NCBI GenBank assembly: GCA_963921275.4
Contig: OZ001293.3
Span: forward strand, 3,744,001 to 3,808,000
Length of the DNA: 64,000 nucleotides
DNA from: an uncultured Hormoscilla sp.
GTDB taxonomy: Bacteria; Cyanobacteriota; Cyanobacteriia; Cyanobacteriales; Desertifilaceae
Direction of reading: 5' to 3'
The notes under the pieces were generated by a model. It ran no database searches. It was not told where the DNA came from and saw only the letters and a list, made by a program, of their open reading frames with translations. The translations under genes and the position numbers were made by a program. Positions 20,362 to 21,826 of this stretch are shown here, piece by piece. Numbering within the stretch: position 1 is the first letter of the stretch; each line of letters opens with the position of its first letter.

Positions 20362-21826
20362 ATGATTATGTCACAAAACTCACCAATTGTTTCCCTACCT
20401 CCAGCTATAGAGCGATTTGCTAATGTGTTGCGAATTGCGGGCTGGATCGGTTTCGTCAGTCAATTAACGCTAGCAATCATTTCTAGTGTGATTTTATTGG
20501 TTGCTGTTATTTTTGGCACCGCTAGAGGGACTGGCGCGAATAATCCGGGCACGGGAGGTGGTCTATTTTTTGCTGTTTGCGGACTGCTGGTGCTGTATTT
20601 GAGTGTTTACCAGGCTTTCCGTTACATACGCTTGTCTAGACAGCTGCGATCGCCTACTCCGAGTCTCCGCCCTTCCAAGAGTTACACGATTTCTATCCTG
20701 CGCTTGGGATTGATGTTTTCTCTGGTGGGGATGGCCTTGACTATTATTGGGGGTGCGGCAATTACTGGCACCTTAGTGGCCAAGTCCCTGACTCAGCCAA
20801 GAACGTTTTTCGATCCAGCAACTAATCTCAGAGGGTTTGTGCGATTCGTTCTAGCCTAACGTGGTCAAACACGGAACGCTAGCCCGGTTTCATTAGCCGG
20901 GAACTCTGACCGCATGGGGGTTAAATTCCCCTCCCCCCAGGTACGGGGGTGACACCGGTCCTCGGTGCTACGAAGCGACATCATCGTGGTGCTAAGCGAG
21001 GACTCAAATGTAGGATAACTGGCAGCCTAAGCCGGTGACGCCGCTAGGAAAGATATCCAAGGTTAGAGCAGGCAAACATGTGCAAGCCTCGTTATAAGGA
21101 ACCAGCGAAATAAGGCTATATGCGCTGGCCTAAAAAGGAAATGGTAGCTAGTATTAGTTTTAGACTCTGGCTAATATAGTACTCAAATAGCTCCCGGGGT
21201 ATAGTGTGGACCTAAAGGTATCGCGAAATGTTGTTAGGGAACGAAGTAACCTCTCGTGTGCTGTCCATCAGGACAAGTTAGATGTTAAGCGCAAGCCACG
21301 GGGGGAGGGATGGCCCAAGAAGCGAATGCCCGGGGTAATTCCTGGGATAACATCTACAGTAATGTAGATGATGCTGGGTAGCCAGCGCTGACGTGGGTCG
21401 GTGATACTAGGAAGCTGCTGGAATGAGTAATCCTAAAAAGCCACGGAACTAATCCGAAACGCAAGTGGAGGATAAGGTATGGATAACTGGTAAAACTGAC
21501 TTGAAAATGGTGATACTAACGGTTATCAGAACAACCACTCGCTAAACCAGGAAAGGGAAGAAAAGACAGGCGGCAAGGGCTAACGGAAGTAATTCCTATT
21601 AAGTCTACCTATGAAAAGGGCCTAGTACCCAGTAGCCGGATGCGGTGAAAATCGCAAGTCCGGTTCCGAAAGGGAGGGTCGGGAAGCGATTCCCGGCTCG
21701 ACCCCATCCATTGAACCTCTGGATCTGTTTGTCGTCCAGGCTAATACTAACACGATTTTAGCTCACTTTATGGGCATTGCGGGAGTCCTTTGGCTACTCT
21801 GTTACATTAATAAACCTTCTTCCTAG
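20362..21826 (+). CDS. DUF3611 family membrane protein, split by a group II intron (exons 20362-20838 and 21710-21826)
   Basis: GWIGFVSQL, NPGTGGGLFFA; the joined exons read ...NLRGF-IEPLDLFVVQANTNTILAHFMGI...* in frame. Confidence 0.88.
20839..21709 (+). ncRNA. ORF-less group II intron (intron A, 871 nt)
   Basis: 5' GTGCG; domain V AGCCGGATGCGGTGAAAATCGCAAGTCCGGTT (21634-21665); domain VI hairpin with CGACCCC; no RT ORF. Confidence 0.93.

Follow-up and report, generated by a model that had tools for sequence, protein, structure and literature searches.

The conserved DUF3611 gene of a Hormoscilla-related filamentous cyanobacterium, which codes for a membrane protein, is split by a group II intron which carries no reading frame for a protein, and we consider it probable that this intron is a young, non-autonomous element, recently inserted in sense into an intact gene and both spliced and mobilised in trans. 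In bacteria, group II introns tend to stay out of conserved genes and to bring their own reverse transcriptase (RT); ORF-less introns in host genes represent an organelle-like state, for which the bacterial cases come mainly from Trichodesmium. In the 64-kb window, the whole stretch of DNA that was analysed, the gene and its intron are arranged as follows.

20362..20838, plus strand: exon 1 of the DUF3611 (TIC21/PIC1-like) gene, 159 codons; PF12263 at E 4.2e-45, profile positions 2-134 of 175
20839..21709, plus strand: ORF-less group II intron, copy c1, 871 nt; GUGCG start, RF00029 match and full-length profile match
21710..21826, plus strand: exon 2 of the DUF3611 gene, 38 codons and the stop; PF12263 at E 4.6e-12, profile positions 142-174 of 175

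The gene starts with an ATG at 20362 and stops with a TAG at 21824-21826 on the plus strand. Exon 1 reads ...GGG TTT up to 20838, GTGCG follows from 20839, the intron terminates at 21709 with ...CCCCATCC and exon 2 opens with ATT GAA CCT at 21710. The unspliced frame (20362..20859) encodes 165 aa, in which ...NLRGF is followed by VRFVLA, read from six intron codons, before the frame stops, exactly where the first-pass annotation of this DNA had placed the end of translation. In-script joining of 20362-20838 to 21710-21826 generated a single ORF of 197 aa, and the two exons together covered the 175 positions of the Pfam DUF3611 profile almost end to end; the return of the DUF3611 C-terminus upon removal of the intron, also claimed previously, is borne out by this ORF and by the PF12263 match of exon 2. 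Since the unspliced frame stops six codons into the intron, the full-length DUF3611 protein is obtainable only via splicing, and the only product possible absent splicing is the 165-aa one, which is devoid of the conserved C-terminal helix. A passage of PMC3610082 ties DUF3611 to Arabidopsis TIC21, and an NCBIfam search of the DUF3611 protein assigned it to no family.

When the exon 1 protein was used as query, 75 of 325 candidates matched at E<=1e-5, the best of them (P0001) being an intron-free protein of 197 aa with 96% identity over exon 1. Alignment to intron-free orthologs had been put forward as a check on the intron, and P0001 matched the rejoined exons without any gap, the junction falling between NLRGF and IEPLD. 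The boundaries (20839-21709) and the sense orientation read earlier from the letters agree with both the sequence and this alignment, and displacing the 3' splice site by ±3 nt led to the gain or loss of one residue relative to P0001. The 197-aa joined product was also collinear with all of the homologues aligned (17/17, drawn from the 75 matches). An alternative 3' splice site at 21707 (...CAU), which is favoured by Rfam, was rejected: it breaks the DUF3611 frame, and it is also contradicted by the 12 aligned copies of the intron, all of which add four bases past CCCC, the last one being a pyrimidine. As P0001, despite its 96% identity, has no intron, the insertion is not ancestral. In a promoter and terminator scan of 19900-22100, three promoter-like sites came up where 2.7 were expected, each of them on the minus strand; no terminator was predicted.

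A family profile search of the window recovered exactly four copies of the intron, c1 and three others.

27327..28197, minus strand: copy c2, with 3 substitutions in 871 nt relative to c1; antisense in a decayed kinase/WD40 pseudogene region
33673..34537, minus strand: copy c3, with 235 substitutions relative to c1 and 11 non-canonical pairs; adjoins transposase fragments
35829..36592, minus strand: copy c4, with internal deletions, 23 non-canonical and 5 gapped pairs, 3 of the broken ones in domain V

Copies c1 and c2 are 99.7% identical and their three differences all fall in unpaired columns; at each of these sites c1 has the base of the other 10 copies, a 3-to-0 retention of the family-wide state which alone is not significant. 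Their flanks differ and have only GGGU(U/C)U before the insertion point and A after it in common. As read from these sequences, c1 is a recent insertion, made visibly young by its near-identical twin, and the family, with near-identical copies at unrelated sites, is one that has been mobile recently. The twin lies 6.5 kb away from c1. Around it are pieces of a Ser/Thr kinase/WD40 gene, spread across several frames, and a 63-nt tandem repeat; c2 was considered as a further intron within a gene and discarded, the long frame of its 5' flank being an antisense reading of the 63-nt repeat and no frame crossing the junction. Copies c3 and c4 are located among transposase fragments, in a 6.6-kb stretch without long ORF. 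The sole copy of the window in an intact gene is c1, which is in the sense (spliceable) orientation. The previous statement that this gene bears no other lesion stands in so far as both exons are intact; it has little bearing on selection since the arrival of the intron, because the insertion is young. The four copies of the window, the multi-copy family to which they belong and the absence of an EBS2-IBS2 pairing in c1 (see below) had been overlooked.

The family extends to related genomes. A scan with a 25-base domain V pattern, run on one genome per species, recovered at least 17 loci, all of which, among the matches listed, were in the Hormoscilla metagenome-assembled genomes (MAGs) GUM202 and SP12CHS1; these loci, cited here with the letter L, hold 20 RF00029 matches along with many full or partial copies of the family. 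Several copies are sense insertions in genes. In a glmM-like mutase (L010), the PGM_PMM_I profile runs from 3-72 to 74-131 across the removed intron; in psaJ (L001), MQDLL is followed after the intron by positions 6-37 of the 37 of the PsaJ profile; exon continuity came back on removal of the intron in a patatin-like gene (L011), and the frame of a PAM68/DUF3464 gene (L014) was likewise continuous. In ilvD (L017), the 3' exon starts from profile position 216 and the 5' part lies past the contig end, so that both exons are seen for the mutase, psaJ and patatin-like cases and the 3' exon only for ilvD. The remaining copies are intergenic, nested or IS-broken. Since psaJ, the glmM-like mutase and ilvD are genes that are hard to lose, we argue that the family is likely to be spliced in vivo. 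The window comes from neither of these two MAGs. The c1 intron is 92% identical to the L009 copy, which overlaps the end of a glycosyltransferase ORF in antisense. Elsewhere in the window, positions 61343-62368 share 91-93% identity with L007. The citramalate synthase shares 92% with its counterpart in Hormoscilla sp. SP5CHS1, and no other match listed exceeds 80%.

The intron itself displays the parts expected of a group II ribozyme. GUGCG at 20839-20843 is invariant across the 12 full-length copies that were aligned, namely the four of the window and eight from related genomes. The domain V/VI already recognised in the letters was confirmed with RF00029, which matched 21631-21707 over its whole length (model 1-77 of 77) with 46.4 bits (gathering score 40). 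The 12-copy family profile matched c1 end to end at E 1.3e-257; c1 is itself part of this profile, but the matches of the eight copies from other genomes are just as good. The longest stop-to-stop frame within the intron is 58 codons. The six domains were delimited on the plus strand as follows.

20845..21245, plus strand: domain I; RNAalifold consensus and pair counts, closing helix formed by alignment columns 7-12 with 503-508
21250..21305, plus strand: domain II; RNAalifold consensus and pair counts
21312..21399, plus strand: domain III; RNAalifold consensus and pair counts
21400..21630, plus strand: domain IV, short and without protein-coding insert; compensatory changes in 6/10 pairs of the basal helix 26
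21633..21666, plus strand: domain V; AGC triad at 21634-21636, GAAA loop and 2-nt bulge, from the RF00029 alignment
21672..21704, plus strand: domain VI; compensatory changes in 6/10 pairs of helix 34, and Rfam alignment

The candidate branch point is A21701, which the Rfam alignment shows as bulged; it stands 8 nt ahead of the junction between 21709 and 21710, and the spacing from the bulged A to the 3' end is the same in 12/12 aligned copies. The RNAalifold consensus of the 12 copies comprised 185 pairs in 34 helices with the six-domain layout, one of which, helix 22 (columns 590-592 with 1109-1111), is probably spurious. Standard pairs occupied 96.4% of the consensus cells, against 85.8% in shuffled alignments. 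Pairs changed on both sides numbered 88, against 47.0 ± 3.7 in shuffles (none of 500 reaching 88), and fell to 19-23 when the partners were slid by 1-3 columns. Among the 185 consensus pairs c1 had no non-canonical and one gapped pair, and was intact at all 184 scorable ones, a score which is flattered by the presence of c1, c2 and L009 among the 12 rows defining the fold. Of the 68 substitutions separating c1 from L009, 19 fell in paired columns (369 in total) and 49 in unpaired ones (497), and 14 of the 16 pairs affected were still paired; these counts suggest that selection acts on RNA structure in the c1 lineage. In the comparison of c1 with the distant L014 copy, 52 pairs were affected: in 35 both partners had changed, in 15 a single one, and 2 were broken. 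Taken together, the segment 20839-21709 is, as judged from its predicted fold, a structurally intact group II intron without a protein of its own. It probably belongs to the chloroplast-like (CL)/IIB lineage, an assignment that is indirect since the Rfam domain I-IV models fell below threshold (22 bits against 36 for RF01999, group-II-D1D4-2); the link runs through a distantly related, RT-bearing Hormoscilla intron (L014, see below).

Recognition of the 5' exon was analysed through the following elements.

20833..20838, plus strand: IBS1 GGGUUU, the final six bases of exon 1; pairs with EBS1 over 6 bp, including 2 G-U
21162..21167, plus strand: EBS1 AGACUC, in the terminal loop (21160-21168) of helix 21152-21176
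21092..21101, plus strand: loop acting as EBS2 in other members of the family; partner convincing in other copies only

The stem presenting EBS1 (helix 18) shows compensatory changes in 6/8 pairs, and its loop varies together with the target site across the twelve copies. With pairings scored as helix length minus half a point per G-U, a score of at least 5 was reached by 11/12 cognate combinations of loop and exon and by 5/124 non-cognate ones. In other copies the EBS2 loop pairs with exon positions -14..-9, the helix being 6 bp long in c3 and L009, 5 bp in c4, L010, L012in and L014, and 4 bp in both c2 and L011. Exon 1 of c1 has no in-register partner for this loop, offering solely a 4-bp match out of register. 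The motif UCUGA at about 20906, considered as an EBS2 whose target would be contiguous with IBS1, was discarded because its bases sit in the covarying helix 4. By its predicted pairings, c1 thus relies on EBS1 without EBS2 to hold the 5' exon, as an ectopic insertion would be expected to do; the missing EBS2-IBS2 pairing marks the site as ectopic and leaves the membership of c1 in the family unaffected.

This arrangement also speaks for the main competing reading, in which the intron would have been dead on arrival: an ectopic insertion that splices poorly or not at all, turning DUF3611 into a very young pseudogene without other lesions. Indeed, lacking EBS2-IBS2 and with two G-U pairs in EBS1-IBS1, c1 may splice poorly. 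With 3 differences from c2, the insertion is too recent for the integrity of the exons to be informative, and the existence of an intron-free relative at 96% identity indicates that the insertion is not ancestral. A fresh pseudogene is also plausible given a neighbourhood full of decay, the surrounding 16 kb containing pseudogenes, IS debris and two decaying copies of the intron. Against this, the ribozyme of c1 is intact at every scorable pair, c1 keeps the family-wide state at its three differences from c2 (not significant by itself), the family is found in sense in psaJ, the glmM-like mutase and ilvD of sister genomes, and the only window copy inside an intact gene has the spliceable orientation. 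We prefer a functional, trans-served intron because the ribozyme is flawless, the insertion is in sense and the family also occurs in hard-to-lose genes of sister genomes; a dead insertion we regard as unlikely.

The source of the protein was looked for within and outside the window. That the intron encodes no RT or maturase, as noted before, is upheld by its 58-codon longest frame, and tblastn with the group II RT of L014 gave no match in the window at E<=10. Neither RVT nor GIIM domains were detected by Pfam in 50 of the 65 window ORFs of at least 100 aa (the 15 others are shadow ORFs), six shorter frames and exon 2. In GUM202, RVT_N, RVT_1, GIIM and HNH domains were detected in a single frame among the 68 long ones scanned, L014:791-2614 on the minus strand; this frame scores 350.7 bits with TIGR04416, the NCBIfam equivalog for group II RT/maturases (cut-off 300), and its best PDB match is the T.el4h maturase RT 6ME0 (E 7.5e-115), T.el4h being an intron which we take to be of the IIB/CL type. 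The intron of this RT starts at L014 3186. Its 5' RNA matches positions 1-518 of the family profile (E 7.7e-23, 74.8 bits), which correspond to domains I-III, and its domain V matches as well, so that this intron, the one RT-bearing case compared at the RNA level, can be regarded as a distant relative of the ORF-less family. The sequence 'GGATGGTGCGG' downstream of the L014 ORF-less intron was tried as the start of a second intron and turned out to be coding sequence of the PAM68-like exon. With the L014 RT as query, 8 of the 120 RT/maturase clusters listed, of 501-596 aa and 69-80% identity, were on a contig of 6,879,066 bp, a length identical to that of the contig recorded for the citramalate synthase of the window; from this equality of length we infer that the source genome encodes several RT/maturases. 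As it encodes no protein, the ORF-less intron most likely depends, for splicing as well as for its recent copying, on RT/maturases supplied in trans by ORF-bearing introns located elsewhere in the genome.

Splicing in vivo without any maturase appears improbable in comparison. The intron does have the structural parts that this would require (in domain V the triad, the bulge and the GAAA loop, in domain VI the bulged A, and EBS1), and the ORF-less C.te.I1 intron of Clostridium tetani self-splices robustly in vitro according to a passage of PMC4424553, where it is called the sole known exception. The occurrence of near-identical copies would nevertheless need a trans-acting RT, and RT/maturases are apparently encoded in the genome; protein-independent self-splicing, although possible, is for this last reason a needless assumption. 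In vitro self-splicing of group II introns generally requires non-physiological salt.

According to the preferred, trans-served mechanism, the DUF3611 gene would be transcribed through the intron and the RNA would fold, EBS1 AGACUC (21162-21167) holding the 5' exon by its GGGUUU end. The bulged A21701 would then attack G20839, and the freed 3'-OH of U20838 would in turn attack the bond between 21709 and 21710, with release of the lariat and ligation of the exons. RT/maturase proteins from ORF-bearing introns would be supplied in trans, both for splicing and for mobility. That the segment is instead a dispersed repeat or MITE, with a chance likeness to domain V and a chance restoration of the frame, fits its multi-copy, dispersed and ORF-less state and is nonetheless almost certainly wrong, in view of the GUGCG start, the Rfam match above threshold, the six-domain fold with 88 covarying pairs, the EBS1 that matches the exon and shifts from one target site to the next, and a frame restored exactly both here and in four other genes.

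ORF-less introns were described at the outset as uncommon, with examples in Trichodesmium, in agreement with passages of PMC4424553 and PMC4649490. The first of these states that such introns are rare in bacteria and usually found in genomes with related intron-encoded proteins (IEPs), and that splicing by an IEP in trans has been shown once, in a cyanobacterium; in the second, 17 introns of Trichodesmium erythraeum, 10 of them without ORF and many in protein-coding genes, are reported to splice in vivo. Part of PMC8919778 further describes an expansion of CL-type introns in Cyanobacteriota, with ORF-less ones in certain genomes. A literature search found no paper linking Hormoscilla with group II introns or introns, and nothing on introns was found in the literature on the genome and pseudogenes of Hormoscilla spongeliae.

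The closest system is Trichodesmium, also a filamentous cyanobacterium, with many group II introns in conserved genes, many of them ORF-less and presumed, or in one case shown, to be dependent on trans-acting maturases, in a genome rich in non-coding DNA and pseudogenes. Our case differs from it by a Hormoscilla-related lineage, other host genes, a splicing deduced from sequence and a near-identical twin. The T.el/TeI family of Thermosynechococcus elongatus has likewise proliferated and is cyanobacterial and of the chloroplast-like lineage; in contrast, c1 lies in a conserved ORF, and the likeness is drawn through the L014 RT. The ORF-less T. elongatus copies are mobilised in trans, as was reportedly found by Mohr et al. 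2010. Organellar introns, in the outline given by a passage of PMC4424553, are likewise splicing-only, located in conserved genes and reliant on factors encoded elsewhere; they are ancient, immobile and often degenerate, whereas c1 is intact, multi-copy and recently mobile. According to PMC4424553, C.te.I1 is also a bacterial ORF-less group II intron, but a lone one in a genome without IEP, whereas c1 belongs to a family in a genome that apparently has several. The element and its mode are therefore familiar; the lineage, the host genes and the evident recent spread are new.

The Hormoscilla lineage includes obligate sponge symbionts. A second cyanobacterial lineage is added here to those with ORF-less introns in host genes, and the insertion can be dated as very recent by the 99.7% identical twin and by the intron-free relative at 96% over exon 1. 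Gene callers will list the interrupted genes, DUF3611 here and psaJ, the mutase and ilvD in related MAGs, as truncated or as pseudogenes. Which trans-acting maturase serves the whole family, how much loss of EBS2 is tolerated before the host gene suffers, and whether the spread of the intron is linked to the symbiotic lifestyle can now be tested. In a wider and more tentative reading, to which we give slightly less than even weight, the family would run an organelle-like intron regime in Hormoscilla, still actively copying itself into conserved genes of photosynthesis and housekeeping (psaJ, glmM-like, ilvD, PAM68-like and DUF3611 being the targets named) while being serviced in trans by a few RT/maturases. 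If true, the DUF3611 insertion would be a fresh, still polymorphic case of a gene made dependent on splicing, and would capture in nature the transition, invoked by models of the origin of eukaryotic introns, by which a selfish retroelement becomes an intron that depends on its host within an essential gene.

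Besides the intron that splits the DUF3611 gene (c1), three further copies of the same ORF-less group II intron family were recovered from the window:

27327-28197, minus strand, ORF-less intron copy c2, near-identical to c1
33673-34537, minus strand, ORF-less intron copy c3, same family, degenerate
35829-36592, minus strand, ORF-less intron copy c4, same family, more degenerate than c3

All of them lie inside 16 kb of the window, with decay increasing from c3 to c4, and none of the three is found in an intact host gene there. The c2 copy is located in antisense within a region (26309-29000, plus strand) in which a Ser/Thr kinase in decay, together with WD40 fragments, is spread across several frames. 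On the 3' side of these fragments, a 63-nt repeat (3.8 copies, 28272-28508) codes for a linker rich in Q and P as well as a transmembrane segment.

Other repeats were observed in the window. Several neighbouring 21-nt tandem arrays of up to 9.4 copies (25368-25691) overlap short ORFs at 25261-25697. Identical 24-nt palindromic elements were detected at 25894-25917 and 46875-46898 (both minus strand), as well as at L003:1345-1368, a locus of the sister genomes described below. They match the Rfam CRISPR-DR28 model at 36.6 bits against 35 but are found singly; a CRISPR array is a less likely reading than a dispersed hairpin repeat.

Around the DUF3611 gene, approximately 8 tandem heptamers (TAGTCAG/TAGTCGG, 20274-20325), reminiscent of cyanobacterial short tandem repeats, end 37 nt upstream of the start codon. 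A long hairpin with A/T flanks (AAACCAGGTTTTT..AAAAACCTGGTTT, 21905-21945) sits between the mutually convergent DUF3611 and fructosamine-kinase genes and could act as a bidirectional terminator; a consensus terminator scan made no call on it. Elsewhere in the window, a 570-aa frame (12387-14099, minus strand) contains a radical SAM domain at residues 60-227 alongside OrfB_IS605 and Cas12f-like TNB domains (TnpB-like), being either an odd fusion or an in-frame transposon insertion. At 46494-46578 (plus strand), Rfam identifies a tRNA (85 nt, 56.4 bits) that has a long variable arm.

Among the loci listed by a domain V pattern scan, family copies were also found in two Hormoscilla MAGs, GUM202 and SP12CHS1. 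In GUM202, a PAM68/DUF3464-like gene (L014:780-4590, minus strand) seems to be interrupted by two group II introns:

4371..3447, minus strand, intron 1, ORF-less
3186..~782, minus strand, intron 2, encoding an RT-maturase-HNH protein

The two are spaced by approximately 260 nt, and the RT-maturase-HNH ORF extends into domain V of its own intron. Elsewhere in the two MAGs, at L012:1781-3579 (plus strand), a c1-like copy is split near position 319 by an antisense L014-type copy (3018..2094), a nested arrangement which splicing of the sense transcript cannot resolve. Another copy (L005:3447-5866, minus strand) is split into three parts, which surround a DDE_3 (IS630-like) transposase gene. In SP12CHS1, psaJ (L001:3339-4400, minus strand), a tiny photosystem I gene directly 3' of psaF, is interrupted behind codon 5 (MQDLL/KYLS...) by a full-length copy.
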